A stretch of 64,000 bases of DNA from Desulfuromonadaceae bacterium. Lineage in GTDB: Bacteria > Desulfobacterota > Desulfuromonadia > Desulfuromonadales > Desulfuromonadaceae. Positions 298-17,677 of this stretch are shown here, piece by piece. The stretch's first letter is position 1. Each line of letters opens with the position of its first letter. Under the pieces are notes generated by a model that had not been told where the DNA came from, made no database searches, and saw only the letters and a list, made by a program, of their open reading frames with translations. The translations under genes and the position numbers were made by a program. The DNA is taken from assembly GCA_034006915.1 (NCBI GenBank), contig JAVERW010000004.1, positions 8,458-72,457 of the forward strand, read 5' to 3'.

Positions 298-333
298 GTT
301 TGTTTCAATTAATATTTAATTTTTTTTGCAAAA

Positions 334-377
334 GAGATGCATCAGCTTTGTCAGAAGTACTAGGGCTGATGCATCTC
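334..377 (-). terminator. candidate intrinsic terminator downstream of umuC
   Basis: 13-bp perfect inverted repeat GAGATGCATCAGC (334-346) / GCTGATGCATCTC (365-377). Read on the minus strand, the hairpin is followed by CTTTTGC then an A-run. Confidence 0.35.
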
Positions 378-505
378 AAGTGAAAAGAAGATCTTGAGAA
401 ACAAAAATCCCGACGGATAATTCCTGTTTTCTGACCCTAGTAAGTTTTTATAGATAGTTGGATTTGGAGGCCGATAAAGCTCTGCCAGCCGAAAATTCCT
501 CCTAC

Positions 506-1765: not shown

Positions 1766-1777
1766 ACAAAGACTACC

Positions 1778-2389
1778 CTACGCTGCACCCTGCAGGTGAC
1801 TCACCACGCCTACAACCGTACCTTGGACGACGACACGATCTGTAGTATAGAACTGGGGCAGGTAGTCCGAGTTCGCTGGCTGGAGGCGTATTTTACCATC
1901 CTTTTCGTGGAACAGGCGCTTCAAGGTCGTGGCTGTGTTATCCACCAGGGCTACAACCAATTCTCCATTCCGCAACTGTTTGGCGGGTTTGACCACCACC
2001 AGAGCACCATCAAGGATCCCATCTTCCTGCATGGAATCACCATTTGCCTTGAGCAGATAATGCTCCGGTCCCAGAAGCAGGTTGCCAAGGTCAATGTGTT
2101 CCTCGCCTTCGGATTCTTCCATAGGCAGGCCTGCACTGATGTAGCCGAGCAAAGGCAGGGAGGTAGTCGATGGCATCTGCTCAGCCGCATCCCCCAGCAC
2201 CAACAGTCCATCTTTGTTGCGCGCGAGAAATCCTCGGATAATCAGGGTCTGCACCATCTTGTGCACCCCGTTAATTGAGGACGAGCCAATTCCTGCAGCA
2301 ATGTCCCGGATGGACGGGCTGATGTTCTTCTGCTCTATAGATTCCGCTACAAAGCGAAACACCTTCTCCTGCTTGGTTGTCAAAGCCAT
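1778..2389 (-). CDS. lexA: LexA-family repressor (wHTH plus S24 self-cleaving peptidase)
   Basis: Start chosen at ATG 2389 (MALTTKQEKVF...) preceded by GGAGAG. Has an N-terminal LexA-like wHTH, an Ala-Gly site in LLGYISAGLP, a GDSM serine motif and a TLKRL lysine motif. About 203 aa, LexA length rather than UmuD length. Confidence 0.85.
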   Translation of the reverse strand: MALTTKQEKVFRFVAESIEQKNISPSIRDIAAGIGSSSINGVHKMVQTLIIRGFLARNKDGLLVLGDAAEQMPSTTSLPLLGYISAGLPMEESEGEEHIDLGNLLLGPEHYLLKANGDSMQEDGILDGALVVVKPAKQLRNGELVVALVDNTATTLKRLFHEKDGKIRLQPANSDYLPQFYTTDRVVVQGTVVGVVSHLQGAA

Positions 2390-2460
2390 ATTCTCTCCTT
2401 CTGTTGCCATGGTAAGGGGTAAACGCGAAGTGAAACGATAATGAAACGCTGACACTATAG

Positions 2461-2534
2461 GAACAGAAGTGGAACAGAGTCAAGCAGAGAAAGGCAGAAC
2501 GTGAAATGACTTGAGGGAGAAACCTCTGTTCCAC
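2461..2534. promoter_or_regulatory. candidate SOS operator region upstream of lexA-umuC
   Basis: GAAC-N7-GAAC direct repeat at 2461-2475, the form of the alphaproteobacterial LexA box GTTC-N7-GTTC. Also an 11-bp perfect inverted repeat GTGGAACAGAG (2469-2479) / CTCTGTTCCAC (2524-2534). Lies 70-145 nt upstream of the lexA start. Confidence 0.25.
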
Positions 2535-2654
2535 ATAGTTCATTACATATCAGTTTTATTATTAGAATTATTGCACTTAAGAGAGGGTTGGGTGTAGGTT
2601 TAAGATTTTTCAGATCATGGATTAACTGTGCATATAAAATAGAGAAACAATATC

Positions 2655-2849
2655 ATGCTTATAACCCTGAAAGACCTACCATCCAACGCCAGAGGATTTG
2701 CGCAGTACTGCATTGACAACTTTGAATTCAGAGATGTTGTAGAGATGGTTTATGCTGACAAGCACGAAGATCATTGTGCTCAGTTCGATATTACCCACGA
2801 GCAATGGCAGGATGCGGTGTATGTGGTGATTAAGCAGATGGGGAAATGA
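2655..2849 (+). CDS. small hypothetical protein (64 aa)
   Basis: ATG-initiated ORF in an otherwise empty intergenic region. No recognisable motif. Confidence 0.3.
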   Translation: MLITLKDLPSNARGFAQYCIDNFEFRDVVEMVYADKHEDHCAQFDITHEQWQDAVYVVIKQMGK

Positions 2850-2999
2850 GAGACGGTCTTGAATTGTGGTCAGTATTGAATGTTTTTAAAGTTATGCTTT
2901 TTTCTTTATTTCAATAAAATCAAGATTGTTAGTGAACGGTACTACGCTACGCACCACACCGGCAGCTTATCTAGGGCGTTATTCGATGGAGGGGAAAGG

Positions 3000-3419
3000 A
3001 TGAGCGAGAATCTCCTGATAGGAGTGAAGCACGAGCTTGAAGTAGCAAGCGAACTGACGGGGGCCGGTCTAGTGGTTTCACTTCCCTTGGTCGATATCGG
3101 GGTTGACCTACTTGCATCCCGCAAAGATTTCTCGAAGACAGTACCAGTTCAAGTGAAATACAAGGAAAAAGAACAGAATATCTTTTTCACAGGTAAAGAA
3201 ATAGCCGCATACAGCGCAAAGAACGTCTATATAGCTTATATCCTTGCCGACTCCAAATGGTACATGCCGTTCAGCGTGTTTCTTGACCACGCAGAGCAAC
3301 CAGCCAGCCGAAAGGATCAAGCTGGATACATAGTGCTGGCGAGAAAAAGTGCTGAGCTCGCTGAGTATTCTGGTGAAAAGGGCTTTGCGAGGATGGTCGA
3401 GTTCATAAATGGTCCATAA
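3000..3419 (+). CDS. PD-(D/E)xK nuclease-fold protein (Hjc/restriction-endonuclease-like)
   Basis: Start at ATG 3000 after GGAGGGG. Motif series GVKHELEVASEL ... PLVDIGVDLLA ... VQVKYK fits the E / D / (E/Q)xK core of this fold. Confidence 0.5.
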   Translation: MSENLLIGVKHELEVASELTGAGLVVSLPLVDIGVDLLASRKDFSKTVPVQVKYKEKEQNIFFTGKEIAAYSAKNVYIAYILADSKWYMPFSVFLDHAEQPASRKDQAGYIVLARKSAELAEYSGEKGFARMVEFINGP

Positions 3420-3527
3420 TAAGCCCATCAGCGCTGACAACCAAAAGCCACGCTCCTTAGTCGCTCTGCTTTGGGCTGCGGGTTATTGGTAGCGTGAGGT
3501 GGTACTGAGAGGTCGTACAATCCTGGC

Positions 3528-4367
3528 ATGTCGAAGAAATCCGAAATCCTCCGAAATCAGCGAGCCTGGGCAAAAAGCGTGGGTCTTAAGTCAGATGAAA
3601 AAGGTTATTTGCCAACCTATGAAGCGAACCTGTTTCAGTCGATGAATCCTGAAACAAAAACCTCGTTCGATCAGGGCAGTGGGGCGGAGCTGGTAGATAC
3701 TGCGAGATATCCAGCCAAGATGAGGGCTTTGCATTCCTCCTCGGCGCTGGCAGTTAATTTCTTTGATTGGTGGGTGGCGAACTCAAATGGCCCGCTCCTT
3801 GAAGCCTTGGGCATCCAGAGTCCCGCTGGTTGCCGGGTCAGATTTGAAGCGCAATATCCAACCGGGTTGCCCGGGAATCCGCCCAATCTTGATGTCACGC
3901 TTGGTCTCCCCGATGGAGAGATCATCGGCATAGAGAGTAAGTTCACCGAGTGGCTCACGCCGAAACCGAAGAGCAAGAATCAATTCAAGGGGAAGTACTT
4001 CCCTGAAGACCCCGGCGTCTGGAGCTTGGTATCATTGCCGAAGTGTCAGGCACTAGCGGAATAGATTAGGGACGGCTTAACTACCTTCCGGTATCTTGAT
4101 GTGGCGCAGCTTCTCAAACATGCGCTTGGTCTTGCAACCGGCGTCGGCACACACTTCCGCCTGTTCTACATATTTTTCGATGCCAACTGTCCCGAGGGCG
4201 AGGTGCATTGGCATGAAATCCGAGAATTTGCACTGGCCGTTGGTACGGAATTGAAGTTCCAAGCAATTTCATATCAATCGCTACTGGATCAATTTGAGTA
4301 TTCGGTTTCAGGTTCAGAGGCATACCGCCAGTATCTTAAGTCGAGGTATTTCGCAGGTGCCGCCTAA
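3528..4367 (+). pseudogene. PD-(D/E)xK nuclease-like gene interrupted by one in-frame TAG
   Basis: ORFs 3528-4064 and 4101-4367 are in the same frame, separated only by TAG 4062-4064. Translation continues ...QALAE*IRDGLTTFRYLDVAQLLKHALGL. Motifs: KMRALHSSSALAVNFF, PDGEIIGIESKF, DVAQLLKH. Confidence 0.5.
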
Positions 4368-4622
4368 ACAAGTGCATCCAGTCGGGTCAACCCACTAGCT
4401 ACGCTTGTGGGTTGGCCGTTTATGCGAGGCGTTAGCAAGTAAAGGAGAAATAACATGGGTTTTTTGACAGATTGACAAAAATAGGTGGTGAGCTTGTTCA
4501 GCAAGCGCAACAGAAGCAGGCACGTCAGATGAAGGAATACTCTCGTAAATCAAAGACTGAATGGAATACGGAACCGAAAATTGGCGGAAAAACGCTTCGA
4601 GAATGGGAGTTTAAATAAATTG

Positions 4623-4988
4623 CTAACAAGACGGGAGGTTATTCAGCCTCAGAATAACACCTTTTAACCCCAGGTCCTTGCACAGCTTCGTGCATCCGTA
4701 GGGAGACATGACACGAAGAACTTTCTTCTGCGTAACCAGATACCGCTTCCATTGCCCAGGCCGTTCAACCACACATAAAAACTGCTCTGTTTTTCCCCGA
4801 ATTTTATCAGGAACTGAAATCCCCTCTGGCAAAGCACCAGGGTAGTTACTAGGATTGGCGGCGATAGCCGCGTATTCCGGAGAATCGGGCAGGGGAGCCT
4901 GTATTTCTTCAAAGGTAAGCTTAAGATCCTGAATCTCCCGGATTAAAAGCTTTAATTCAGGTTCCTGGATAATATCTTCGCCCCTCAT
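4623..4988 (-). CDS. hypothetical protein (121 aa)
   Basis: ATG ORF downstream of the relaxase on the same strand, with a repeat-rich upstream region. No recognisable motif. Confidence 0.35.
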   Translation of the reverse strand: MRGEDIIQEPELKLLIREIQDLKLTFEEIQAPLPDSPEYAAIAANPSNYPGALPEGISVPDKIRGKTEQFLCVVERPGQWKRYLVTQKKVLRVMSPYGCTKLCKDLGLKGVILRLNNLPSC

Positions 4989-5265
4989 CCCCGCCTATTC
5001 CTCAAGTTATAGTAGCTAAAACCTTCTCACCTGCCGGATATGTGAACCGACAAAATGACATCATTTGGTTTCAAATGATGCAATGTAGTTTCACATTGCA
5101 TCAAATGATTTCATTTACAATAGTGCAGGGTAGTATCAAGTGCATTTAATATCAATATCAATCTATGGATACGCTTTGCCGAAACTTGAAAATATGAATT
5201 GATTGATTGTGATACAGCGCATCTGCCGGGTAACGTCTGTATGGCATATAGTCCATCCTGCCTCG

Positions 5266-8200
5266 TCACATCCCCGGAGAAGGAGAGTCATCCCATTCAG
5301 TTGATTCCTGCTCTTCGCTTAAATTTTCTGTCTGTTTAAACGGTTCAGATAACGGTTCAGATAACGGTTCAGATAACGGTTCAGATAACGGTTCAGATAA
5401 CGGTTCAGATAACGGTTCAGATAACGGTTCAGATAACGGTTCAGATAACGGTTCCGGTAATGGTTCCGGTAATGGTTCCGGTAATGGTTCCGGTAATGGT
5501 TCCGGTAATGGTTCCGGTAATGGTTCCGGTAATGGTTCCGGTAATGGTTCCGGTAATGGTTCCGGTAATGGTTCCGCCGCAGCTACTCTTTTCTGTGTAT
5601 GTGTCTGCACAGGCTGGATACCGTGACGTTGAACACTGTTTATCCTGGCATCAAAAATGGGTGTCTGACTGATTTTAACAAGGTCTGTAACTGCCTGAGT
5701 TGTTTGTCTGCTTAACTCCCTTTTGCCCTGCATTTTTGTAATCAGGGCTGCAAACTCTGCATCGATTTTATTCTGGCGCCGGTAGTGATTCGTAAAACGC
5801 GCCGGGCTTTTATCTCCTCCGAACTTAATGCTCTCCTGCGCTGACTGTTCCATCCAGCGATCCACAGCATCCAGCGCCTGCTGCTCCAGTTCGCTTAAGG
5901 CATTTATGCCGGGGCAATTTTGTCTGCACCGGCGGATCCCCGAATGAAACACCTCTCGGATCGAACTCAGGGCATCATTGACTTTATTGCGCTCAATCTT
6001 AGGCGCCTTGGAAAACATCCTATACTCACGCACCAGTGCTGCGCGCTTCTGCATGATCTCATCTTCAGCCCGATTACGCTTTTCTACAACTGCGCCGAGA
6101 TCCCGTACCCAGTCTGAGGCACCAACTTCCTTTTGTATCCCCGTATTAAACAGCCGCAGGGGACTATCCTTATGCGCCCACTGCGAAGCCCTGGTGAGCA
6201 TCTTGTCGCGGTTGTCGGTATAGACCATGACATTATTTTTATTCCGGGAGATCCCCACCAGAAACTCGTTTTTGCTCAAAATAGGAGAATCGGAAGGGGC
6301 GTGGTACATAACCAGGCGTTCAACAGACTGTCCCTGGCTTTTATAGGTCGAGAGCGCATAGCTGTAATCAAAGTACGGATAGCTTGTCACATTCCAGCGC
6401 ACATAGCGTTCGGTTCTTCTCCCTTCCTCATCCACCAGACACGCCAAGATATCTCCATCCTCACTGATCTCATCGATTACAGCCTGCGAGCCGTTAAATA
6501 CCTTCTGCGCTCCTTTGCTGACAGACCTGCCGTCTCTATCGGTAAACTGAACCTCGCGGGATTCATTTTTCAGGAACACAATCCGCTCCCCGCAGGCAAA
6601 CTCCTTCTCCTTCTCATGCCCACGCGCATTCGAGACAGTGAATGTTTCCCCTTCGGATGATAATATCCCGGCATCAAGCAGGTGCTCACGAATCAGGTCG
6701 TTGAACGTGTCCTTGCTCTTGTTGGTTCCGGTTATCAGCAGGGCAGGGGTGTTTGAATCCCTGAAATACTCCATATACTCAGCCACCACTTTCCGGGTGC
6801 GTTCATCTGCATTGGGGGTCGCAGAGACCGCCTCACTCTCCTGAAGGATTCCTACCGCCCTGTGTACATCATCGTGGCGGGTGATAGCCTCCACTGCTGC
6901 CAGCTCAGCAGCATTTCTCTGTCTGCGTATCTGCTGCAGCGTCCAGGTCTGCATCCCTTCATCCTGCCAGGTTTCAAACGGCTTGCCTGCAGACACCCCC
7001 GGCAACTGATTCCTGTCCCCAATCAGTACAATCCGGGCTCCGAACAACTTCGCCGCATGACATAACTCGTTGGCCTGAATAGAACCGAGCATAGATGCTT
7101 CATCCACCACAATAAGATCGCCGCGTTTAATACGGCCAATATGTGCAAGGCGCGCCAGGGTTCTGCTATTACCTTCTTCTCTGGCTCGCGCATAGTTGCG
7201 CACATCAATCAGAAACTGAGCCACGGTATTGCACTTCAAGCCCGTTTCATCACCCAGCTTCTTTGCCGCATCCCCGCTTACACAAAGACCTGTAATGCGC
7301 TCACGTCCCAGAGTCTGCGCCACAGCAAGCAGCATGGTGGTCTTACCCGTTCCCGGATCGCCCTGCACCCCGGTGATAAAATCACATGCCTTAAGAATCC
7401 CCAGCGCTGCATCTCTCTGTTCCCCTTCAAAAGAGAACGGAAACAGGTTCCTGGTTGCGTGCATTAGACGCGCTTCTACATCATCTTCATCTGCAGGGAG
7501 AAACAACTCCTTGCCCTGGCGCAGAAACTCCCGGTTCTGTGTTTCAGCGCGCAGGTGCTTTACCTGCACAAGCTGTTCATGCTGATAGTCACCTTCAAAG
7601 TTATCCTGACCGGGAAGGCGGATCAGTGCATATTTTTGTAAAAACCAGGGCAGGTGTTTCAGGACATCTGCATGGTTAACAACAGGGCAGGGGGTAGAGA
7701 TACTGTTGTGTTTAAGAGTCCCGGCATATTTAAGAACTGCCGCAACCATCTCCTTGCGCGTAGTAAGCGCACTTATGTCCAGATATTCATCCAGAGCGGC
7801 CCGGATAATCTCTTTTACTTTATTCTCCATGTCCGCATTGATCTCGATATTACCCATGGTATGTGTACCGCTGCTCGCTTCTTCCATGCATATCTTTACC
7901 CCCAGATCCTGAGCAGTTTCTCGCCACTCTAGACGCAGCAGTTCCGGGTCTATGTCTACTTTGCGTTTCCGGTTTTTAAGGCATGCATCCTGGCGCTGTT
8001 TTGCTGAGGCATCCTTGCGGCAAAGACCCCTGTCAGCAAGGTTGGCAGCGATCTCAGCGTAGCGTTTCGAGAACCCCTCAATCTGTGCGCGATCGATTGC
8101 CCCAACCTCGAAACCATCTTCGGTATTTCGGGTTCGGATTCCCCGCTGTTCCAGCTCTGATCTAAGCGCAGCTTTGTACACCAGATCAAAGTGCTTTTGA

Positions 8201-8724
8201 TTCCGATAGAAGTAGCGAAAATCCACTGCGCGCACCTGCTCTTCTCCGTCAATAATGCACGCATTGGCTATCAGACAATGACTGTGCAAGAGGGGATCAT
8301 TGGATCGACTAAGTGAGTGGAGAATGGGAAGGGCAATCATCCCCTTTGCCTGATAAGAATGGGTAACCCCGCGTTCCTTTTTTACCCCCCGAAAGAAGGC
8401 GTTATCTTCAATGTATTTGAGTACCGCATTGCACGCATTGCGGTGTGCACTTACCGCAGCATCACTGATCTGTTTATCCCCTACGGCAAACAAAATTGAA
8501 ACACTCTTGGGTGCGCTGAAGGTCAGGTCAAAGGCTTTCACTTCCCGGTCCTTAACCAAGTGCGAAAAAGCTTCGCGTTTGGACACATTCAGATGCTCAA
8601 AACCGAAGAGTTTATTCCCGTTTCCCAACACCTCAATAGTGTCCTGCTCCACAGGAAAATAGTAATCATCCCTGGCGTAATAACTCTCAATCCTGCCTGC
8701 CTTAACCGTGATCCCGCTGACCAT
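5266..8724 (-). CDS. MOBF-family conjugative relaxase/helicase (TrwC/TraI-like)
   Basis: 1152 aa. N-terminal relaxase motifs [30 protein letters not shown] (His triad) and [12 protein letters not shown] are colinear with R388 TrwC. Central RecD-like helicase has Walker [15 protein letters not shown] and Walker [10 protein letters not shown]-terminal PLPE/PLSE repeat tail. Confidence 0.92.
5342..5576 (-). repeat. perfect 12-bp tandem coding repeat inside the relaxase 3-prime end
   Basis: On the + strand: 9 units of GGTTCAGATAAC (5342-5449), then 10 units of GGTTCCGGTAAT (5450-5569) plus a partial unit. Encodes (PLPE)x10 followed by (PLSE)x9. Confidence 0.95.
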
Positions 8725-8790
8725 ATTTATCTCCCTATGTGGTGAAAAAACTGTACCCGTTCCAAAGCGCGTGAATACCGCAATCCTGCG

Positions 8791-9033
8791 TCACAGACAT
8801 TTCTGAAAGCCATAGCATTTCAGGTGTTTGCCATCTTTAGGAGCGCCCGCCGGGTTCAGATGTGTGGAGCAGGGCAAAGGTTCACAAAGTGGACCGCAGC
8901 CGTGCTCAATAAAGTGAGCGCAGGCGAACGCCATATCCATGCTCTTCTGTGTGGCATTCACCTCAATGTCTCGTTGGACAGCACTCTTTAAATTCTGCCT
9001 GCTTAACAAAAAGTGGTTTTTTCGTGTTGACAT
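8791..9033 (-). CDS. possible ribbon-helix-helix relaxosome accessory protein
   Basis: Small ORF directly upstream of the relaxase on the same strand. From MSTRKNHFLLSRQNLKSAVQRDIE the beta-strand/helix pattern is RHH-like. Weak, based on position. Confidence 0.25.
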   Translation of the reverse strand: MSTRKNHFLLSRQNLKSAVQRDIEVNATQKSMDMAFACAHFIEHGCGPLCEPLPCSTHLNPAGAPKDGKHLKCYGFQKCL

Positions 9034-9117
9034 TATCAATGCGTTGATCAAGAATATACACAGTCAATATTAAATATCAACGCACAAAAACAAATATAGA
9101 CGGGAGGGAAGGCGGTT
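9034..9117. promoter_or_regulatory. candidate oriT / divergent promoter region
   Basis: AT-rich gap between the divergent relaxase operon and the + strand array. 9-bp inverted repeat TGCGTTGAT (9040-9048) / ATCAACGCA (9076-9084). TTGACA at 9027-9032 with AAGAAT 17 nt downstream. No nic site recognised. Confidence 0.3.
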
Positions 9118-9495
9118 TTGAGAATAGACCAGGAGAGAATCGAAAGGACACTGAAGATGAGCAGAAAAAAGAGCATCGAGAGCAGAATCAAAAACAAGAC
9201 ACTCAAAGATATCCGCAACGAATTGAGATTTTTTGAAAAAGGAGTAATCGCAGATGCCACCCGCGCAGCAGGTGAGATAGGGGTGGCGATATTTAGGGAA
9301 GATCCAGAGCATCAGATCTTCCAGGATTATCCGCAATTCAGAGAAAAGATTTCAGAATTATCCGATGTGCTGGGGCGGATTAACGTCAAAATTAGCAAAC
9401 GAGAAAATGGCACTGATACGGGACAAAAAAACAATCCGGTAAGCACCAAAAAGGAAAATGACTTTGTGCGCGATATCCGGGACGAAGAACTTTAA
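9118..9495 (+). CDS. hypothetical basic protein, first gene of the + strand array (StbA-position)
   Basis: TTG start at 9118, or ATG 9157 (MSRKKSIESRIKNK...). Lys/Arg-rich N-terminus. No motif recognised. Confidence 0.35.
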   Translation: MRIDQERIERTLKMSRKKSIESRIKNKTLKDIRNELRFFEKGVIADATRAAGEIGVAIFREDPEHQIFQDYPQFREKISELSDVLGRINVKISKRENGTDTGQKNNPVSTKKENDFVRDIRDEEL

Positions 9496-9517
9496 AAAAA
9501 GTGAAAGGAGAAATGGC

Positions 9518-10180
9518 ATGCTCACAATGATACACGGAGATAAGGGCGGCGTAGGCAAGTCCATGGTGGCGCAGGTACTGCTGGATTATCGGATCGCAAG
9601 CAGTCAGGAACAAAGCACAATTCTGGTGGAATCTGATACCAGAAATCCGGACGTTTCCAGGCTGTTTGGCAAATATATCCAGGTTGAGGAAATCAACCTA
9701 AAAAGCCACGACGGGTGGATGGAACTGGCAGATCTGCTGGAGCAGAATCGCGACAAAAATGTGGTTGTTTCCCTTCCGGCCGGGGTTGGCAATCACATAG
9801 AAACCGAAGGGCAGTATCTGTCTGATTTGCTCGCAGATCTGGGGCATGAATTGAAGGTGTACTGGCCGATCAACCGTAACAAGGATTCAATAATTCTCCT
9901 GAAAGAATTTATGGAATCGCCCCTGGGCCAGAGAGCAGATCTTACTGTCGTATTGAACGGATTCTTCGGTAAGCAGGAGCAGTTTCAGCTCTGGAACAAA
10001 AGCAATACCCGCCAGCAACTTCTGGAACAATATAACGGCAGGGAGGTGTTTCTCCCCGAATTGCATCACCGGGTCGTGGATGTGATCCGCGAGCCGTATA
10101 CCATGTGCAAGGGCTTGCAATATTCCGTGCGCGTCGAGCTGGAGCGCTGGCTACGCAGGGCTTATCAGATTGTGTATTGA
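9518..10180 (+). CDS. ParA/MinD-like P-loop ATPase (plasmid StbB/TraL-like position)
   Basis: Start at ATG 9518 after GGAG. Deviant Walker A in MIHGDKGGVGKSMVAQ. Confidence 0.65.
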   Translation: MLTMIHGDKGGVGKSMVAQVLLDYRIASSQEQSTILVESDTRNPDVSRLFGKYIQVEEINLKSHDGWMELADLLEQNRDKNVVVSLPAGVGNHIETEGQYLSDLLADLGHELKVYWPINRNKDSIILLKEFMESPLGQRADLTVVLNGFFGKQEQFQLWNKSNTRQQLLEQYNGREVFLPELHHRVVDVIREPYTMCKGLQYSVRVELERWLRRAYQIVY

Positions 10181-10213
10181 GGAATGAGTTTTGGCTGTGA
10201 AACAGGAGGATAT

Positions 10214-10816
10214 ATGAGTAATCATGCAGTTGGATCAAGCAGGCAGGCAGAGATCGACATCTTCGACGAGCTTGATGATGTCGATTTTGAAGAAGAATAC
10301 GTGGATGAAACAGCGTACGTAGAAAACCATGCTTACATGTACAATAGCAATACCAGGACCCCGCTGCAAAAATTTGAAGACTGGATGGGGCGGGAACCAA
10401 CTGCCCAGGAGCGGGAGGTGTTCCACGATCTGCAGCGCAATTTTGACCTTGAAGATGATGATACTCTGTGGGTGATACTGGTGGGACTGGAGTACTATTT
10501 GACTTTGTACAAAGAGATTCCCGAACGCATCAGTGATCAGATATCAACAAATATCGCGGAGACTATTAGCAAGGTAAAAAAACTTGCAGAATCGGAAACC
10601 GATTCATTATTCGTCCACGCCCAAAACATATATCTGGATCTGGATAATTATCATCACAAACTGAAGATCAATGCCCAGAGATCGATTCGGAAAAGCGTTC
10701 AGGAGGAGATCCTGAGGTTGAGAAAAGAGTATCGCCGAAACTGCGTATCCTATATTGCAGTCGGTACGCTGTTCTTCACCATCGCCTGGGCAGGAGTTAA
10801 AGCAGGGTTGCTGTAA
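10214..10816 (+). CDS. hypothetical protein with very acidic N-terminus and C-terminal TM helix
   Basis: ATG 10214 after AGGAGG. Acidic run EIDIFDELDDVDFEEEYVDETAYVE. C-terminal hydrophobic segment YIAVGTLFFTIAWAGVKAGLL. Confidence 0.45.
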   Translation: MSNHAVGSSRQAEIDIFDELDDVDFEEEYVDETAYVENHAYMYNSNTRTPLQKFEDWMGREPTAQEREVFHDLQRNFDLEDDDTLWVILVGLEYYLTLYKEIPERISDQISTNIAETISKVKKLAESETDSLFVHAQNIYLDLDNYHHKLKINAQRSIRKSVQEEILRLRKEYRRNCVSYIAVGTLFFTIAWAGVKAGLL

Positions 10817-10846
10817 TGGTATTCAAAGGAGTATCACTTTAGAGCT

Positions 10847-11653
10847 ATGGCTATCTATTTCACCGCCGATGAGCATTTCGGCCATACAAAAATCATGCAG
10901 TATTGCAAGCGCCCCTTCGATTCCATCGAAGAGATGGACCAGACAATCATCGAGCGCCACAATGCCGTGGTACGCCCGAAAGATACCGTGTATCACTTAG
11001 GGGACTTTTCGTTCTGGAACCACGGAAAATACCTAAGCCGGCTCAAGGGCAAGCATATCCTCATCCTGGGTAACCACGACCGCCTTAAAAACACCAAGGA
11101 GGGTTGGCTGGAAGTCCATCAGGTAATGCGCCTAAAATGGCAGGGCAAGGTTCTGTGGCTCAGCCACTATCCCCATCTCGTATGGCCGCAGAGCCATTAT
11201 GGAAGTTGGCACTTGTTCGGGCATGTGCATGGTTCCATGCAAGGGGTAGGGCTGAGCATGGATGTAGGCGTGGATGCCAACGACTACAGACCCGTGAGCA
11301 TCGAGAAAGTTGCAGAGGTTATGAACCAGCGCGGAGCAACCGCGCAACAATTAAAAGATGCCGTTGACAAAGAATCTCTCAAGCCCTACGCGAAGAAATA
11401 TATCTGGTGGAAAACACCGGAAGAAGCGGTGGAGTACCCGCAGCGCGTAATAGCGCAGGTGATGAATATTGGTACTTTTGAGGATACCCAGGAGCTTGCC
11501 GACCTTGTGGGTAATGATGTGTTGCGCATGGTCATAGAACAAGCCGAGGTCGGACAATTCAATGGGACTTCCTGGTCTTATTGGCATTACCGCCTTGAAC
11601 TGTGCGAGATAGACCAGGTGCCGCCATTGCCTGAACGCAGAGGGTTAAGATGA
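10847..11653 (+). CDS. calcineurin-like metallophosphoesterase with C-terminal unnamed WWKTPEEA domain
   Basis: Motifs FTADEHFGH, HLGDF, LGNHD, GHVHG. The C-terminal ~85 aa (YAKKYIWWKTPEEAVEYPQRV...WSYWHYRL) recurs as ORF 16750-17058. Stop overlaps the next start (ATGA 11650-11653). Confidence 0.8.
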   Translation: MAIYFTADEHFGHTKIMQYCKRPFDSIEEMDQTIIERHNAVVRPKDTVYHLGDFSFWNHGKYLSRLKGKHILILGNHDRLKNTKEGWLEVHQVMRLKWQGKVLWLSHYPHLVWPQSHYGSWHLFGHVHGSMQGVGLSMDVGVDANDYRPVSIEKVAEVMNQRGATAQQLKDAVDKESLKPYAKKYIWWKTPEEAVEYPQRVIAQVMNIGTFEDTQELADLVGNDVLRMVIEQAEVGQFNGTSWSYWHYRLELCEIDQVPPLPERRGLR

Positions 11654-12402
11654 AACCAAAACATTTGAGTGACGCAGAACTAATAGAAGCAATTGAACAG
11701 CTTCTACATTCAGGCGGTAGCGCCTCAGAAGAAGAAATCAAGGAAAATGCCCTTGCCTACATCAAAGGTCAGAAGCATTTACTACCCGCAAGATTTTTTG
11801 TGCGGCAAAATCTGGACAAAAAAGCTTTTTTCATGGCAGGAGGCCCGGGTGCCGGCAAAAGTGAAACCGCAGTAAATATTGGCAGGGTGGAGAGAGTGGA
11901 TATTATTGGTACAGACGCGTTGAGAAAAATTTGTCCATTCTACAGCGGTGCAAACTCAAACCTGTTCCAAGGAGCTGCATCAAAGGGAGTGTCATACCTT
12001 CTTGATTTCGCCTTCAAGAATAAAGTGTCTTTCATTTTGGATGGCAACTTTTCTGACTACCGCCTGCAAAAAGAAAACGTCTCAAGAGCTGCCAGTTGTG
12101 GCTATAACATAGAGATCCTGTTTGTCCACAGAGATAAGCAAGTTGCCAGAGATTACACCCTTGCTCGTGAAAGAATCGAAGGCCGCGTAGTACCTGAAGA
12201 TGTGTTTGAGGCAAAACTTAAAGGGGCAATAAAAACAACAATGCGAATATTGGATGAATTCCCGGACATTGCTTTTCGCTTTTTCGACCTGGAATCAAGG
12301 CAAATCCTGAGAGGCGAAAAAGCGATACAGAAACTTCATTGCCTATCTGAGCAGAAGCCAGTACCTGAACGTAGAGTTTGGCCTGGAGGTGACAACCAAT
12401 GA
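11650..12402 (+). CDS. zeta-toxin-family P-loop kinase
   Basis: Walker A FFMAGGPGAGKSETA. Overall layout fits the zeta toxin/AAA_33 kinase family. ATGA overlaps with both neighbours. Confidence 0.7.
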   Translation: MKPKHLSDAELIEAIEQLLHSGGSASEEEIKENALAYIKGQKHLLPARFFVRQNLDKKAFFMAGGPGAGKSETAVNIGRVERVDIIGTDALRKICPFYSGANSNLFQGAASKGVSYLLDFAFKNKVSFILDGNFSDYRLQKENVSRAASCGYNIEILFVHRDKQVARDYTLARERIEGRVVPEDVFEAKLKGAIKTTMRILDEFPDIAFRFFDLESRQILRGEKAIQKLHCLSEQKPVPERRVWPGGDNQ

Positions 12403-13034
12403 AACCGAAAAGAATAATTCTTGTGCGCCACGGAGAGTCACAGGCTAACGCTGATCCGGACCATCACGAGTTTACCCCCGATTATGCTATGCACTTAACC
12501 GAGACAGGCAGGCAGCAGGCGCACATGACCGGGAAAACCATCCTTGATCTGGTAGGTAACGAAAGCGTGCGTGCCTATGTATCCCCCTGGTACCGCACCA
12601 GGCAGACCTTTGAGGAAATAGAGGATGTGCTCGGCGAACGTGTAGTCAGAACTCTGGAAGATCCCCGCATTAGAGAACAGGAGTGGGGACATCTGCGTAG
12701 CGCCGATGAAACACACGCGCTATCCAAAGAGCGGATTGCCTATAGCCCGTTTTACTACCGTCTACCCGATGGAGAATCAGGCGCGGATGTATATGATCGG
12801 GTCAGCACTTTTATGGAAACCCTGCACCGTGATTTTGAAAAAGAGGATTTCCCGGATAATGCACTGATTGTCACCCATGGCATGACCTTGAGGATCTTCC
12901 TTATGCGCTGGTTCCATTGGACCGTTGAGTATTTTGAGCGGGTGCAGAACCCCGGAAATGCTGAAGTGATTGTGATGGAGAGAGACCACCAGGGGCAATA
13001 CGAGGTGACTACACCCCTTCGATTGCGTGACTGA
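12399..13034 (+). CDS. histidine phosphatase superfamily protein (phosphoglycerate-mutase-like)
   Basis: IILVRHGESQAN (RHG catalytic motif) and a downstream THG (IVTHGMTL) motif. Confidence 0.8.
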   Translation: MKPKRIILVRHGESQANADPDHHEFTPDYAMHLTETGRQQAHMTGKTILDLVGNESVRAYVSPWYRTRQTFEEIEDVLGERVVRTLEDPRIREQEWGHLRSADETHALSKERIAYSPFYYRLPDGESGADVYDRVSTFMETLHRDFEKEDFPDNALIVTHGMTLRIFLMRWFHWTVEYFERVQNPGNAEVIVMERDHQGQYEVTTPLRLRD

Positions 13035-13137
13035 ATACATGTGTAATAACAGTGCCTTGACATAATAAACTAGAAACCTAAAACACGATAAACTAGTAAA
13101 TCTTTTCTCATCGTTCTATCAGCAGAAGGCTAGAAAC

Positions 13138-13956
13138 ATGAAAATCCTCCCCTATGCAGACCTGCACATAGAGTTCAGTGCCTCACTGGATACCGCCACG
13201 CCAACCACCCTCGAAGAACAGAACGCCATGAGTGCCGCCGGCCGCCAGGCCGATGTGGTTATCCTTGCCGGGGATACCTATACCAAAGGCCGGGGACCCG
13301 AAATTGCCTCTAAGATGTTCCCCGGCAAACAGGTTGTGATGGTGGCCGGGAATCACGAATATTACGGCCAGGGATACCCGGTACATACCTCCAGACTCAA
13401 ACACAAGGCAGAGGAACATGGCATCCACTTTCTGGAAAACCAGGCCGTTGAGATAGACGATGTGGTGTTCCTCGGCTGTTCTCTATGGACTGACTGCAAA
13501 CTCTGGGAAAGCGGCCCATATAAAGGACTATACGGATTCAAGGAAACCGTTGCCGATGTGTACAGTGCCATGAACGACTACCGCAAGATCTACTATAAAG
13601 ACCGGTTCGACAAAAGAGAGCTGGTACCGCAGGACTTTATCAAGGTTCATCTGGATTCAGTAAGGTGGCTGCGCGAGCAGTTCGAGAAATATCAGGAGCG
13701 CAAGGTGGTTGTGGTAACGCACCATGCCCCATCTATCCGCTCCGTTGCCGACACCTACCAGCAGAGCGTGTATTCAGCCGCGTATGCCTCACACTTAGAT
13801 GATCTGGTAGCAGAGTCGGGCGCAGCACTATGGATTCATGGACATTCGCATGGATTCTTCGACTATCACATAGGTAATACGCGGGTGGTCTGCAACTCCA
13901 GGGGCTACCCGTTTGAAACCACCGGATTCAAGACCGATATGCTGATTGAGGTATGA
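13138..13956 (+). CDS. calcineurin-like metallophosphoesterase (second copy, different subfamily)
   Basis: Motifs YADLHIEF, LAGDTY, AGNHEYY, VTHHAP, HGHSH. Confidence 0.8.
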   Translation: MKILPYADLHIEFSASLDTATPTTLEEQNAMSAAGRQADVVILAGDTYTKGRGPEIASKMFPGKQVVMVAGNHEYYGQGYPVHTSRLKHKAEEHGIHFLENQAVEIDDVVFLGCSLWTDCKLWESGPYKGLYGFKETVADVYSAMNDYRKIYYKDRFDKRELVPQDFIKVHLDSVRWLREQFEKYQERKVVVVTHHAPSIRSVADTYQQSVYSAAYASHLDDLVAESGAALWIHGHSHGFFDYHIGNTRVVCNSRGYPFETTGFKTDMLIEV

Positions 13957-14276
13957 GCGGAAAAGAAAGTAAACATCCCATGGACAAAGGGGAAATAAAG
14001 GAAATCCTCGCTGCCGATATGGCGTATTTGTCCAGGGAATACGGGGTTGAGAGGATAGGGCTGTTCGGTTCCTACGTCCGGAATGAGCAACGCCCGGATA
14101 GTGACATTGATTTGCTGGTGGAGTTTGCCAGCAACAGACCGATTGGCTTGTTCCGATTCGTTCATCTCAAAAACCATCTATCCGATTTACTCGGCACTAA
14201 AGTGGATCTGGTAACACCTGCAGCACTAAAGCCGATTATCGGGGAGCAGATTCTAAACGAAGTTGAGTATATATGA
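13953..14276 (+). CDS. MNT-type nucleotidyltransferase (NTP_transf_2, MntA-like)
   Basis: GLFGSYVRNEQRPDSDIDLLVEF (GS...DxD). ATGA overlap with the upstream phosphoesterase. No HEPN gene follows. Confidence 0.8.
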   Translation: MSGKESKHPMDKGEIKEILAADMAYLSREYGVERIGLFGSYVRNEQRPDSDIDLLVEFASNRPIGLFRFVHLKNHLSDLLGTKVDLVTPAALKPIIGEQILNEVEYI

Positions 14277-14403
14277 CCTGGAGCCGGAACCAGTTAATGT
14301 AAAATAAAATTTGCAGATTTAGACTTTTAGGAAAATTCATTTTACGTTATGCTGAATCCGAAAAGCAGACTGCGACCCTGAAAAGCTCCGGAGTATTCAA
14401 AGC

Positions 14404-15447
14404 ATGAAAATAAAACGGGTATTATTTGATCCCCACGAAAGGGAGGTAAACGCGCTCGGGAAAAGAATCAAGGAGGCCCGTTTACGCCGGCGTTTCTCCA
14501 TGAAAAGGGTGTGTGAAAACGCAGGAATCTCCCGACCCACCCTGAGCAAGATTGAGAATCCGAATGGGGACGCCTCGGTGTGTTTCGGGCACCTGGTTGA
14601 GGTCCTGCGCGTTTTAGGTCTGGCATCCGACCTGTCCCTGATTGCCAAAGAAGATAAGCTGGGCAGGAGTATTCAGGACAATGCCCTGCATCAAGCCAAA
14701 CGAGCGCCCCGCAAGAAGAACAAACACGTGCGACTCATAGCCATTGGCGACATCCACGGGCACAGAGAAAAGCTTGATAATCTCCTGCACCAGATACAGC
14801 CGCGCGAAGAGGACAGGTTCGTCTTTTTAGGCGACTACATAGATAGAGGTCCGGATAGCAGAGGCGTGATAGAGGATCTGATAGACTTCAGGCTTTTATA
14901 CCCCAAAACAATATTCCTGCGCGGCAACCACGAACAGCTCTTGATCGACACCCTGATCAGCTGCCGGGTCATTGAAGGAACACCACTTCACAAAATATCA
15001 CCAGAGTGGAGAAAGGACGTAAAATATGAAACCGATGCCATGCTGTTTGTGAAAAATGGTGGTGACAAAACCCTGAAAAACTACGATGCAGAGGTTGTCA
15101 GGGATGGCTTTAAACATACCCTGATCGGCACGTTACCCCAAAGTCACATAGATTTTTTGACAGACACAAAACTCTATTATGAATACGGGGATTTTCTTTT
15201 TGTCCACGCCAACACAGACCCCCTCAACCCCCTGGAAGAGAACGACCCTTTTGCATTTCTGTGGGATCGTCCCACTCAATACCGGGAAGGGAAAACCCTG
15301 ATTGCCGGACACACGCCAACCGAAGAAGGTTATACCCCGGATATTTCTTCGGGAGTTATAAGACTCGACACCGGTGCTGCCTATGGCGGACCCCTGAGCG
15401 CCATGGATATATTCTCGGGGCAGATGTGGCGCTCACAAAAGGGTTAA
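14404..15447 (+). CDS. XRE-family HTH fused to PPP-family Ser/Thr (PrpA/ApaH/lambda-like) phosphatase
   Basis: N-terminus LGKRIKEARLRRRFSMKRVCENAGISRPTLSKIEN (HTH_3-like). Then GDIHGH, GDYIDRGPDS and RGNHEQ PPP motifs. Confidence 0.8.
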   Translation: MKIKRVLFDPHEREVNALGKRIKEARLRRRFSMKRVCENAGISRPTLSKIENPNGDASVCFGHLVEVLRVLGLASDLSLIAKEDKLGRSIQDNALHQAKRAPRKKNKHVRLIAIGDIHGHREKLDNLLHQIQPREEDRFVFLGDYIDRGPDSRGVIEDLIDFRLLYPKTIFLRGNHEQLLIDTLISCRVIEGTPLHKISPEWRKDVKYETDAMLFVKNGGDKTLKNYDAEVVRDGFKHTLIGTLPQSHIDFLTDTKLYYEYGDFLFVHANTDPLNPLEENDPFAFLWDRPTQYREGKTLIAGHTPTEEGYTPDISSGVIRLDTGAAYGGPLSAMDIFSGQMWRSQKG

Positions 15448-15469
15448 ATGATCTTCTTTCCCCTTGTCC

Positions 15470-16201
15470 ATGAATCAAAGGGACACCGCCATGCGACTCA
15501 TAGCAATAGGTGACATCCACGGCCACAACGACAAACTGAAGTCCATCCTGGAGCAGATAGATCCGCAGCAGTCAGACCAGTTCGTTTTTCTGGGCGACTA
15601 TATAGATCGTGGGCCGGACAGCAAGGGCGTGATTGATACCCTCATTGAATTTAAGGCTGAATTTGGGCGTAGCGTATTACTGCGCGGAAATCACGAGCAA
15701 CTCATGCTCGATGCTCTGGAAGAGCACTGTCCACAGTACTTCCCTGAAGGTTTTCAACCCACCTGGAATCCCTCGGAGAGTGGCATATATAGGAATTGGG
15801 GCAACTTCGAGCTTTGGGCTCAGAACGGCGGCTGGAAGTGTCTTGAAAGCTACGGGGTCAAAAGAGAAGAACTGACCAATCTGCCTGGCTGCTGGGACTT
15901 CGTACCTTCCGAGCATATTGCCTTTATTGCGCAGACCGAACTTTATTACCGCCAGGGAGGTTTCCTGTTTGTCCATGCCGGAGCAGTTGAAACCCTGCCC
16001 CTCGATGAACAGATGGAAACGATTTTGTGGGAACGCCACGCTCCACCGGGGATAAACGAGATCCATGTTGTAGGTCATGAGCCCTGTCCCGACTCAGAAC
16101 CATACTTTGAAGAGATGCGCTACAATCTGGATACCGGAGCAGGGTATAACAGAAAACTCACTGCTTGCGATGTGCTTACGAAGAGATATTGGCAGGCATG
16201 A
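15470..16201 (+). CDS. PPP-family Ser/Thr phosphatase (paralog of the catalytic half of 14404-15447)
   Basis: ATG 15470 preferred over TTG 15464. Motifs IGDIHGH, LGDYIDRGPDS, LRGNHEQ, VGHEP. Confidence 0.8.
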   Translation: MNQRDTAMRLIAIGDIHGHNDKLKSILEQIDPQQSDQFVFLGDYIDRGPDSKGVIDTLIEFKAEFGRSVLLRGNHEQLMLDALEEHCPQYFPEGFQPTWNPSESGIYRNWGNFELWAQNGGWKCLESYGVKREELTNLPGCWDFVPSEHIAFIAQTELYYRQGGFLFVHAGAVETLPLDEQMETILWERHAPPGINEIHVVGHEPCPDSEPYFEEMRYNLDTGAGYNRKLTACDVLTKRYWQA

Positions 16202-16753
16202 AACAGGTTGAGAACCTTAGAGAATATATACTGTCCGGGCAGAATGTGGTTCTGTATGGAGAGAAGAGCGCAGAGAAAACGACTCTGGTGTCTGAGGCCC
16301 TTCGCCTCGTTTCGGATAGCCACGATGCGGTAGTTGTTGATCTCAGCAATGTACGGAAAGGCGATGAAGTTGTTTCCAGGATTTCAGGAGCCTTGAAACG
16401 CATCCCTGTGAGAAAGCGCCCCAAAGAGGCTGTGCGGCGCTTTTTTCTTTTTTCGTATGCTTTTGCCTGCCGGAGCAAAGCAGGATTGGCAGGATTCGAT
16501 GTATGAGGTATTCGCCCACATCGAAAGGGCACACCAGGAAAGCCCCCTGGTTGTTTTCCTTGACGAGTTCCAGGATGTGCTTAACTGTCAGGACAGCGAC
16601 CGCCTGCTTGCCCTGTTGAGATCCTACATCCAGCATCAGCCTGACATCCCCTATCTCTTTGCCGGAAGCACCAGGCACCAGATGTATGACATTTTTATAG
16701 GTTACAGCAGCCCCTTCTTCAAGTCTGTACTTCCGATGGATTCAGAGCTATGA
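16198..16753 (+). pseudogene. frameshifted and truncated AAA/Arch-type ATPase
   Basis: Frame 1 gives MKQVENLREYILSGQNVVLYGEKSAEKTTL, a degenerate Walker A. After the T-rich run at 16441-16453, frame 2 continues with a Walker B-like VVFLDEFQDV. The product is far shorter than intact family members. Confidence 0.5.
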
Positions 16754-17058
16754 CATGTATTTCAAAGGTAGACCCTGATTTTCTCAAGCACTACGCGAAG
16801 AAATATATGTGGTGGAAAACACCGGAAGAGGCAGTAGAATTCCCACGGCGTGTAATCTCGCAGGAGATGAACCTGGGCGTGCGGGAAGATATGGAGTCAT
16901 TGGCCGCAGCCGTAGGTGATGACGTTCTGCGCGAGGCAATATCAGAAGCCGAGATTGGCGAGTTTGATGAACGCCAATGGCACTACTGGCATATTCGCCT
17001 GAGGCTGTGTAGAAGAGATGAAGAACCGCCTCCCATGCCCGTGCGCCGGGTGGAATAG
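16750..17058 (+). CDS. stand-alone copy of the WWKTPEEA...YWH domain
   Basis: 102 aa. HYAKKYMWWKTPEEAVEFPRRVISQEMNLG...QWHYWHIRLRL aligns along its length with the C-terminus of ORF 10847-11653. Confidence 0.5.
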   Translation: MTCISKVDPDFLKHYAKKYMWWKTPEEAVEFPRRVISQEMNLGVREDMESLAAAVGDDVLREAISEAEIGEFDERQWHYWHIRLRLCRRDEEPPPMPVRRVE

Positions 17059-17060
17059 CC

Positions 17061-17335
17061 CTGCAGCTACCCGAGATATTAAAATATGAAAAGCGAAACC
17101 TTCTACCCGGAGATATTGATTTCAGCAAGAGCCTTATCAGAGCCTACCTAAATGTTACGCAGTCATTTGCCGCTGTAGCAGATCTGCTCCAGAAGGACGA
17201 GAAGAGTATTTGGCGCATGCTCAGTCCCAGCGGGAATCAGAGTCTGAAAAACTTTATTACCATTCTTTAAATGTGTAGAGTCGAAGAACATCTTAAGCTG
17301 AAGGTTCTCTATCGTTATTAAACTCATACCAACAG
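17061..17335 (+). pseudogene. remnant of an addiction-module antidote (HigA-family HTH) gene
   Basis: Frame 3 reads ...DIDFSKSLIRAYLNVTQSFAAVADLLQKDEKSIWRMLSPSGNQSLKNFITIL*, resembling the ...AYL...IA..tG.sR.slYr.LS..GNP....i..iL.. pattern. There is no canonical start. A trailing HLKLKV lies in another frame. Confidence 0.25.
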
Positions 17336-17479
17336 TTGAGTCCATAGTGCCCTGGCAGTAAACAGTTTTTTCGATGAGGCGATATTCACCACATATAGCC
17401 TTATATTGCAACTGATGACAATAGATGATGACACCCATTATGTTTTTTGTTAATGTCGTTGTTGCATTACATATAAAAT

Positions 17480-17677
17480 AATCGGAATTGTGGAAGACGG
17501 TGAAAATCCGTCGCGGACCCGCCACTGTGTTCGGCGTTCATACGTCGTCAGTCAGACACACGACCGATTCATTTGTTCGTCCCGTCTTCGTGGTTATGAG
17601 ACGGCAGAACCAGATACGTGGATTAAATACGGAATCCCCGCAACCTCTATTGTCTATTGGTTGCGGGGATTTTTTTA
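17480..17677 (+). promoter_or_regulatory. cobalamin riboswitch (compact aptamer) with terminator expression platform, leader of the cob operon
   Basis: Core GGAAGACGGTGAAAATCCGTCGCGGACCCGCCACTGTG and a B12-box-like AGTCAGACACACGACCG. P1 is AATCGG (17480-17485) / CCGATT (17564-17569). A terminator hairpin follows. Confidence 0.8.
17634..17677 (+). terminator. riboswitch-controlled intrinsic terminator
   Basis: 12-bp stem ATCCCCGCAACC (17634-17645) / GGTTGCGGGGAT (17659-17670) followed by a T-run, 23 nt before the cobC ATG. Confidence 0.8.

Follow-up and report, generated by a model that had tools for sequence, protein, structure and literature searches.

A zeta-fold kinase gene overlapped by an antitoxin-type domain in a probable mosaic operon on a mobile block of a Desulfuromonadaceae bacterium

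Among the closest described systems, epsilon/zeta and PezAT encode toxins that act as 3'-kinases of UDP-N-acetylglucosamine (UNAG), and in zeta the residues Thr118, Arg120, and Thr121 contact this substrate (PMC3062530). AvrRxo1-Arc1 combines an NAD 3'-kinase toxin of the zeta-fold superfamily with a protein antidote, and in AbiE/MenAT systems the AbiEii/DUF1814 toxins are neutralised by antitoxin-induced auto-phosphorylation (PMC11375011). Here we describe a locus comparable to these systems in a 64,000-nucleotide stretch of a Desulfuromonadaceae bacterium (GenBank assembly GCA_034006915.1, contig JAVERW010000004.1, positions 8,458 to 72,457), which was analysed as a whole and is referred to as the window. 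The locus is a triad of + strand open reading frames (ORFs), namely ORF1 at 10847–11653 (268 aa), ORF2 at 11650–12402 (250 aa), and ORF3 at 12399–13034 (211 aa), which encode a metallophosphoesterase with a C-terminal antitoxin-type domain, a zeta-fold kinase, and a histidine phosphatase, respectively. An initial annotation had proposed this gene order, the ATGA overlaps, and the three folds, and all were borne out at the exact coordinates and by matches to Pfam, NCBIfam, and PHROGs. The triad lies in a conserved ~6.3-kb mobile cargo block (10844–17117, + strand) that recurs at ~92.5% nucleotide identity in metagenome contigs L096–L101. The catalytic motifs of all three proteins are intact, and a comparison of the window with L096, on which all the divergence values below are based, placed the three genes under purifying selection. 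The triad is toxin/antitoxin-like mobile-element cargo of a known type, in altered form.

The initial annotation had stated that no small antitoxin accompanies the kinase. This was wrong, as residues ~171–268 of ORF1 (11357–11653, + strand) form a separate antitoxin-type domain of ~98 aa directly upstream of the kinase, recognised by family alignment and gene neighbourhoods. By its placement, this domain occupies the antitoxin position, overlapping the kinase start. The remainder of ORF1 (residues 1 to ~170; 10847–11356, + strand) is an aq_1665/phrog_547-type metallophosphoesterase of a kind carried by phages and plasmids, with profile matches to phrog_547 phosphoesterase (3.8e-53) and PDB 1xm7 (aq_1665; 1.6e-14), a weak match to Metallophos_2, and a complete phosphoesterase signature in the translation (D8-x-H10, G52-D53, G75-N76-H77-D78, H107, G125-H126-x-H128). 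Both parts of the protein are strongly constrained, with dN/dS values of 0.06 for the phosphoesterase and 0.08 for the C-terminal domain. The latter keeps all of the family-invariant residues (22/22) and is 60% identical to a stand-alone 102-aa ORF at 16750–17058. Full-length ORF1 was found only in P0138 (97% identical, 19 contigs), the other phosphoesterase relatives being stand-alone proteins of 160–220 aa, and the fusion of phosphoesterase and 98-aa domain is unique to the window's lineage.

The family to which the ORF1 C-terminal domain belongs is very large, with at least 837 matches at 60–70% identity and 1098 representatives at the 50% clustering level. Its members are normally stand-alone genes that overlap the start of an AbiEii toxin gene, often by 4 bp. 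An AbiEii-profile match lay directly downstream in 66 of the 79 metagenome loci of the family, most of the others being truncated contigs, and in every context that was inspected individually the next gene encoded an AbiEii-family nucleotidyltransferase toxin. In longer members, HTH_3, HTH_31, MarR, or "addiction module antidote" domains stand at the N-terminus, which is the standard two-domain layout of antitoxins, with a DNA-binding part ahead of a neutralising part. We call the domain antitoxin-type because the family sits directly upstream of AbiEii toxins and carries HTH domains elsewhere. The locus thus shares with AbiE/MenAT a domain family that takes the place of the antitoxin ahead of AbiEii genes, again with a 4-bp overlap, but differs in having the kinase in the toxin position. 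The AbiEii profile had no match in the window or in L096–L101, and the domain is related neither to the AbiEi families of Pfam nor to the PDB structures of MenA. The family had no significant Pfam match, and searches of the upstream domain against Pfam and NCBIfam connected it to neither epsilon nor PezA. Its structural model (pLDDT 92.8, five helices) matched no fold at E<1 in the PDB, a database that includes both epsilon and PezA. No family member was found in IMG/VR viral contigs. Membership in DUF6922 is not claimed, since the connection consists of weak profile matches; a jackhmmer search started from the DUF6922 ORF of locus L041 did not reach the 98-aa family. For an antitoxin-type family its sequence (P0019–P0137, P0258–P0407) is unusually conserved: members from Gammaproteobacteria, Betaproteobacteria, and Actinobacteria are 60–70% identical, and many aromatic positions do not vary (WWKTP, YWHYRL).

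ORF2 (11650–12402, + strand) was assigned by Pfam, alignment, and structural modelling to the zeta/PezT-fold P-loop kinases, within a clade that does not have the usual small partner. It matched Zeta_toxin (6.8e-24) and AAA_33 in Pfam, and the zeta-toxin P-loop GGPGAGKSETA reported in the initial annotation is present. The catalytic residues (Walker A G64–K70, D89, R92, D131, R146, R173, and R179) are invariant in the clade, and D89, the catalytic Asp in a D-x-x-R motif, aligns with Asp66 of PezT ("IDGDSFR"). A single-sequence search of the PDB returned nothing, and a sequence profile was required to reach PezT (9.9e-7) and then the polynucleotide kinase Pnkp1 (9.4e-6). The best Foldseek matches of the ORF2 model (pLDDT 88) were zeta, PezT, Neisseria zeta_1, and AvrRxo1 (E 2e-8 to 5e-6; top PDB entries 1gvn, 2p5t, and 3q8x), with query-normalised TM-scores of 0.52–0.65 over this set and 0.58–0.65 for the zeta toxins. 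PFKFB3 kinase domains, PSTK, and polynucleotide kinases matched more weakly (E ~2e-5 to ~1e-4; TM-score ~0.45). The likeness to AvrRxo1 (E ~5e-6), a superfamily member that acts on a nucleotide cofactor, is structural; its identity to the window kinase is 12–14%, and there is no Arc1-like partner.

The window kinase therefore resembles the epsilon/zeta and PezAT toxins in its fold, Walker A motif, and catalytic Asp, and in having a small helical domain encoded immediately upstream, but this domain has no relationship to epsilon or PezA, an enzyme is attached to it, and a phosphatase follows the kinase. A further difference concerns the substrate pocket. On the basis of a profile alignment rather than a ligand-bound structure, "EGTLRT" of PezT aligns with "DGNFSD" of ORF2, so that N133, S135, and D136 stand in place of the UNAG-contact residues and the zeta substrate motif G-T118-x-R120 reads G-N133-F-S135. 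S135 is invariant in the clade. Because zeta Thr118 and Arg120 are replaced by Asn133 and Ser135, we describe ORF2 as a putative zeta-fold kinase and do not file it as a UNAG-kinase zeta toxin.

Relatives of the kinase were examined in 160 neighbourhoods (80 genome and 80 viral loci). The wider family is 31–45% identical to ORF2 and shares its invariant residues, including S135. A profile of a conserved ~60-aa ORF matched in 112 of the 160 loci, and in 100 of them this ORF lies immediately downstream of the kinase. The same profile had no match in the window or in the nearest clade (L016–L021), whose members, from Thiomicrorhabdus, Sulfurimonas, Helicobacter cetorum, and others, are 40–48% identical to ORF2. 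ORF2's clade has lost the downstream partner that the wider family retains. The clade has an extra ~20-residue N-terminal helix, and compared with the kinase/~60-aa-partner family the window has a homologous kinase with this extra helix, but a histidine phosphatase in the partner slot. A cis-autoinhibition of ORF2 by its N-terminal helix, as in EzeT, was considered; it amounts to a correlation of partner loss with the N-terminal extension.

The two-gene module of the wider family consists of a zeta-like kinase followed by a conserved ORF of ~50–64 aa, and the two genes overlap by 4 bp or lie ≤10 nt apart (L022–L095, L109–L158). The small partner carries the motif FSDFf..aS..EKKkvf..v..kA..eQr.l and has no Pfam match, and the module was found in candidate-phyla-radiation (CPR) bacteria, Gammaproteobacteria, Firmicutes, and prophages. 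At L041:5556-7130, a DUF6922 ORF, a zeta-like kinase, and a 61-aa partner form a three-gene unit that looks like an inserted cassette. Similar sequence is repeated just upstream and downstream of it, with near-identical translations of the ORFs at 5512/7076 and at 5347-5562/6818-7126. Close relatives of ORF2 in two other loci start 15 nt after the end of otherwise unrelated ORFs, an AbiEii-like nucleotidyltransferase (L017:5194-5988) and a HipA_C-like kinase fragment (L020:45-821), which have the tail "...LADGDSGLKLK" in common. This suggests a shared cassette boundary.

Several features of the triad point to its history. Collinear direct repeats of 20 nt (85%) and 12 nt (92%) are present at both kinase junctions. 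The left copy (GCCATTGCCTGAACGCAGAG ... ATGAAACCAAAA; 11623–11661, + strand) spans the end of the 98-aa domain and the kinase start, and the right copy (GCCAGTACCTGAACGTAGAG ... ATGAAACCGAAA; 12357–12410, + strand) spans the kinase tail and the start of ORF3. The junction-to-junction local alignment score was 16, against a background of 7.5 ± 1.4 in which none of 2352 windows reached 16, and the repeats are conserved in L096. At the protein level, the kinase tail "EQKPVPERR" resembles the 98-aa family tail "DQVPPLPERR", and this relic lies in a stretch (residues 239–250) that is predicted to be disordered. The kinase start "MKPK" is the start of ORF3 and of its phage homologues, not that of kinase homologues. 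A tblastn search of 9000–17600 found no further relics of 98-aa genes besides the kinase tail. Divergence from L096 is also uneven along the block: the kinase (dS 0.06) and the 98-aa domain (dS 0.10) have diverged less than the phosphoesterase, ORF3, ORF4, and ORF5 (dS 0.28–0.40), and nucleotide identity is 96–99% over ~11300–12450 versus 85–93% in the flanks.

The hydrolases are also found together elsewhere. An ORF1-type phosphoesterase adjoins an ORF3-type phosphatase in phage contig L106, and the two lie ≤4 kb apart in 4 of 33 viral loci. The closest stand-alone ORF1-type phosphoesterases (61–63% identity) are in L102 and L103, where relatives of ORF4, ORF7, and the ORF1 N-terminal domain occur together (L102:2689-5546 and L103:2502-5534; 51–63% identical), interleaved with TnpV and DUF6915 genes and accompanied by no kinase, histidine phosphatase, or 98-aa domain. 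The junction repeats, the lower divergence of the segment that holds the 98-aa domain and the kinase, and the pairing of hydrolases without a kinase argue for a late arrival of the kinase, and mosaic assembly with late kinase insertion is, on this comparative evidence, quite probable. The repeats and relics indicate that the kinase may have landed where the 98-aa domain and ORF3 already met, or may have come in via collapse of a second 98-aa copy. The triad would then be a lineage-specific mosaic, not a co-evolved three-enzyme system.

The ATGA overlaps link ORF1 to ORF2 at 11650–11653 and ORF2 to ORF3 at 12399–12402. Shine-Dalgarno-like sequences, GAGGG before ORF2 and GGAGGTG before ORF3, lie 5–7 nt ahead of the internal starts and within the preceding ORFs, which makes translational coupling of the triad plausible. 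The initial annotation had gone further and read the overlaps as co-translation in fixed stoichiometry. Coupling is probable, but 4-base overlaps are usual in the window, where at least 12 co-directional pairs have them (positions include 13953, 16750, 20723, 23320, 25834, 27704, 28333, 29913, 33552, and 38895). Because they are so common, the triad overlaps are not a special stoichiometric device; they attest to operon membership and make coupling probable. If the kinase was inserted at an older junction, it would have taken over the coupling signals at both of its ends, and the coupling of ORF2 and ORF3 was probably inherited from the landing site and did not evolve for stoichiometry. Scans for tRNAs, promoters, and terminators gave nothing above background, and the window holds no tRNA gene anywhere.

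The explanation that we favour overall, tentatively and as a judgement that blends this history with the mechanism, is a mosaic conflict operon in which the 98-aa domain restrains the kinase. The block would have gathered phage-type phosphoesterases and orphan antitoxin-type genes, with the kinase inserted between older residents, and a single mRNA would give rise to the three triad proteins through translational coupling. The kinase would phosphorylate a nucleotide-type metabolite other than UNAG and would serve as a growth-arresting effector or as an addiction function for the block, while being held by protein contact with the ORF1 antitoxin-type domain. Both hydrolases would have been present earlier and might, in a secondary role, eliminate the product of the kinase; such a reversal, by ORF3 or by ORF1, is possible. 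Restraint by the ORF1 domain is proposed because gene order and 4-bp overlap are the same as in the 98-aa/AbiEii modules, and L041, where an ORF with the related DUF6922 domain precedes a zeta-like kinase, was counted in its favour as a second instance. The ORF1 domain is the likeliest restraint on the kinase, and taken on its own this step of the model is doubtful.

A number of observations weigh against this explanation. No kinase was found downstream of the 98-aa gene in the 79 loci retrieved through that family (0/79). The family looks specific for AbiEii, and it is not obvious why a binder that evolved for a Pol-beta-fold toxin should also neutralise a P-loop kinase. DUF6922 is only weakly linked to the 98-aa family (Pfam E 0.15 to 6e-4; hhalign E 0.004, probability 8%). 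The nearest kinase relatives are solitary in complete genomes, with no conserved neighbour, and their clade may be non-toxic or self-inhibiting. The dN/dS of the kinase is 0.34, compared with 0.06–0.13 in its neighbours, and hints at weaker constraint, although it is based on only 20 substitutions. Finally, the junction repeat is short, and the adjacency of the kinase to the 98-aa domain may be accidental if the kinase merely landed there.

The kinase–phosphatase module proposed in the initial annotation explains the triad differently, as an enzyme-versus-enzyme toxin/antidote pair or futile cycle in which the kinase phosphorylates an essential nucleotide-type metabolite and ORF3 and/or the phosphoesterase strips this phosphate off again, with cell survival depending on continued synthesis of the phosphatase. 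ORF3 (12399–13034, + strand) is a branch 1 histidine phosphatase (His_Phos_1, 2.4e-32) with intact catalytic residues (R10-H11-G12, R66, E93, and H160) and a dN/dS of 0.125, and in all three proteins the active site is intact and subject to purifying selection, which favours the module. It fills the downstream 4-bp-overlap slot that holds the small partner in 100 kinase relatives, which is the only comparative support for the module. A phosphatase-like loss of the zeta_1 product has been reported in vitro (PMC5923241). A P-loop kinase followed by His_Phos_1 is also the layout of PFK-2/FBPase-2, and among the structural matches of the ORF2 model are PFKFB3 kinase domains (E ~2e-5); this structural similarity is weak, however, and the window genes are separate, with no conserved pairing and no specific homology to that enzyme.

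The distribution of the three families speaks against a dedicated system. Among the 160 neighbourhoods retrieved with kinase relatives, not one had an ORF1-type phosphoesterase or an ORF3 relative within 4–6 kb, and the 33 viral neighbourhoods retrieved with ORF3 relatives held no zeta-like kinase; the relatives of ORF3 belong to phages that have no such kinases. In PLSDB plasmids, searched with all three ORFs, and in GenBank phages, searched with ORF3, every relative stood alone, and neither the fusion nor the triad was seen. The triad was found only in near-identical copies of one mobile block, and the initial annotation had itself named a lack of co-occurrence elsewhere as the result that would contradict the module. 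The solitary state of the nearest kinases and the secondary look of the ORF2/ORF3 junction, where the kinase tail is disordered and relic-derived, point the same way. Comparative genomics gives no backing to a dedicated kinase-versus-phosphatase system, and we regard it as unlikely.

A second alternative takes the block as a counter-defence set, or as an RNA or nucleotide end-processing set, that serves the establishment of a mobile element. For end-processing, the kinase, the phosphoesterases, and ORF3 would heal 5'-OH, 3'-phosphate, or 2',3'-cyclic-phosphate RNA ends or degrade nucleotide signals. The closest relatives of ORF3 are in large phage contigs, and two of these place an ORF3-type phosphatase at the head of an RNA-repair operon. 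At L275:4001-6567 it is followed by a PHA02142-type RNA ligase, cREC_REC, and a CthPnkp-like polynucleotide kinase (1.8e-16), and the operon at L278:3986-7400 is similar. An RNA ligase lies near the phosphatase in L106/L286, and Tpt1 in L108/L288. RNA repair and calcineurin-like signal-degrading enzymes are known from jumbo phages (PMC7824862), and this survey makes no mention of a histidine phosphatase heading an RNA-repair operon. The context of the Xanthomonas jumbo phage RTH11 was uninformative. The triad compares with T4 Pnkp and Clostridium thermocellum Pnkp, which join a kinase to a metallophosphoesterase, in combining a P-loop kinase with a metallophosphoesterase and a second phosphatase; its proteins are separate, however. 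These two hydrolases may serve as the 3'-phosphatase or cyclic phosphodiesterase of a Pnkp/Rnl-type end-healing set. The kinase profile reached Pnkp1 behind PezT alone.

Several points count against end-processing. The profile built from the phage loci found no relative of the PHA02142-type RNA ligase in the window, RtcB and other ligase types not having been searched. Healing without sealing would be unproductive and would block RtcB. The window kinase is nearer in fold to zeta toxins than to polynucleotide kinases. For counter-defence, the orphan antitoxin-type domains (98-aa against AbiEii, MntA-like against HepT) would neutralise RNA-targeting toxins of the host. Three antitoxin-type genes stand in the block without toxins, and relaxase and partition-like genes adjoin it. 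ORF4 and ORF5 resemble PADLOC defence candidates, however, so defence is possible instead, and the position of the block relative to the relaxase differs between backbones. Taken together, these two variants are improbable.

It is also possible to read the triad as three independent cargo genes without functional interaction, the overlaps and the fusion being by-products of accretion. The separate histories of the genes, the missing conserved association in the comparative data, the ubiquity of 4-base overlaps in the window, and the decay of the 3' part of the block, with a broken ATPase-type gene in the window and a shortened second 98-aa copy in L096, all fit this reading. Accretion leaves unexplained that the in-frame fusion and both overlaps were kept under strong purifying selection in two lineages that are ~7% diverged and in 19 contigs, and an antitoxin-type domain exactly at the start of a toxin-family gene would be an unlikely coincidence. 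We give this reading a low probability. Least credible is a highly improbable reading of the whole 6.3-kb block as a counter-defence island against RNA-targeting abortive-infection toxins, in which toxin-less antitoxin modules would each be tied to an enzyme (phosphoesterase-98-aa fusion, phosphoesterase-MntA, ATPase-type-98-aa), ORF1 would bring its phosphoesterase to a host toxin of AbiEii/MenT type, the activity of which depends on phosphorylation of its active site, and the kinase and histidine phosphatase would reset phosphorylation of the toxin or of damaged RNA ends. If this were true, ORF1 would be the first example of targeting by means of an antitoxin domain.

Should the kinase indeed be restrained by the antitoxin-type domain, as in the mosaic conflict operon that we favour, one neutralising domain would have been re-used across two unrelated toxin folds, nucleotidyltransferase and P-loop kinase, and the locus would exemplify the tethering of such a domain to an enzyme. 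The analysis also touches on three under-described groups: the very large and conserved ~98-aa family of AbiEii partners, which has no match to a solved PDB structure; the two-gene module of zeta-like kinase and ~60-aa ORF, which is widespread in genomes and prophages; and the histidine phosphatase family that heads phage RNA-repair operons.

Downstream of the triad, the block continues with ORF4 (13138–13956, + strand), a second metallophosphoesterase (phrog_1649; partial match to PADLOC PDC-S10), which has an ATGA overlap with ORF5 (13953–14276, + strand). ORF5 is an MntA-like minimal nucleotidyltransferase of antitoxin type without an adjoining HepT/HEPN partner; it matched PADLOC PDC-S09 at 3e-30 and fell just under the cut-off of the NCBIfam MntA antitoxin model. 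No HEPN/HepT-type gene is among the annotated genes of the block. ORF4 and ORF5 form a second pairing of an enzyme with an antitoxin-type gene within the block. In PADLOC, ORF1 and the kinase had no match, and the matches of ORF3 were negligible. ORF6 (14404–15447, + strand) combines an HTH domain with a lambda-phosphatase/NinI-like metallophosphoesterase, and the intergenic region ahead of it (14276–14404) has a ~150-nt indel relative to L096. ORF7 (15464–16201, + strand) is a NinI-like metallophosphoesterase. It is followed by the remnant of an ATPase-type gene in two ORFs (16165–16753, + strand), assigned via the intact 182-aa counterpart in L096, whose matches to ATPase_2/AAA_16 are weak. 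The stand-alone second 98-aa antitoxin-type gene (16750–17058, + strand), which is the copy 60% identical to the ORF1 C-terminus, closes the block with no toxin gene after it. This gene is intact in the window and cut to 63 aa in L096, whereas it is in L096 that the ATPase-type gene is whole. The 3' end of the block thus appears to be decaying differently in the two lineages.

Among the metagenome contigs, the cargo block occurs on different backbones. On one it lies beside an ISL3 transposase and a type I restriction system and on another beside a MobA/MobL relaxase, with a KfrA-like gene immediately upstream of the block on each of the two. Placement of the block in a plasmid leading region was rejected, as its position relative to the relaxase varies between backbones. 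A near-identity search of 9000–17500 against plasmids returned no match. Beyond ~17.5 kb the window is chromosomal, with the cobalamin operon genes CobC, CobU, and CobT from 17490, and GC rises from ~0.49 to ~0.59, which places the block at the end of an integrated mobilisable island. The low-GC segment is probably an integrated mobilisable element. Positions 1–17500 have a GC of ~0.47–0.52 and include UmuC (506–1765, − strand), a REase-ARP nuclease domain (3528–4064), and a relaxase. The gene at 9458–10180 has the Walker-A motif KGGVGKS and no Pfam match. The relaxase/helicase is of TrwC type (1152 aa; 5266–8724, − strand), and an (EPLP)n then (EPLS)n tandem repeat lies near its C-terminus, at ~5360–5610.

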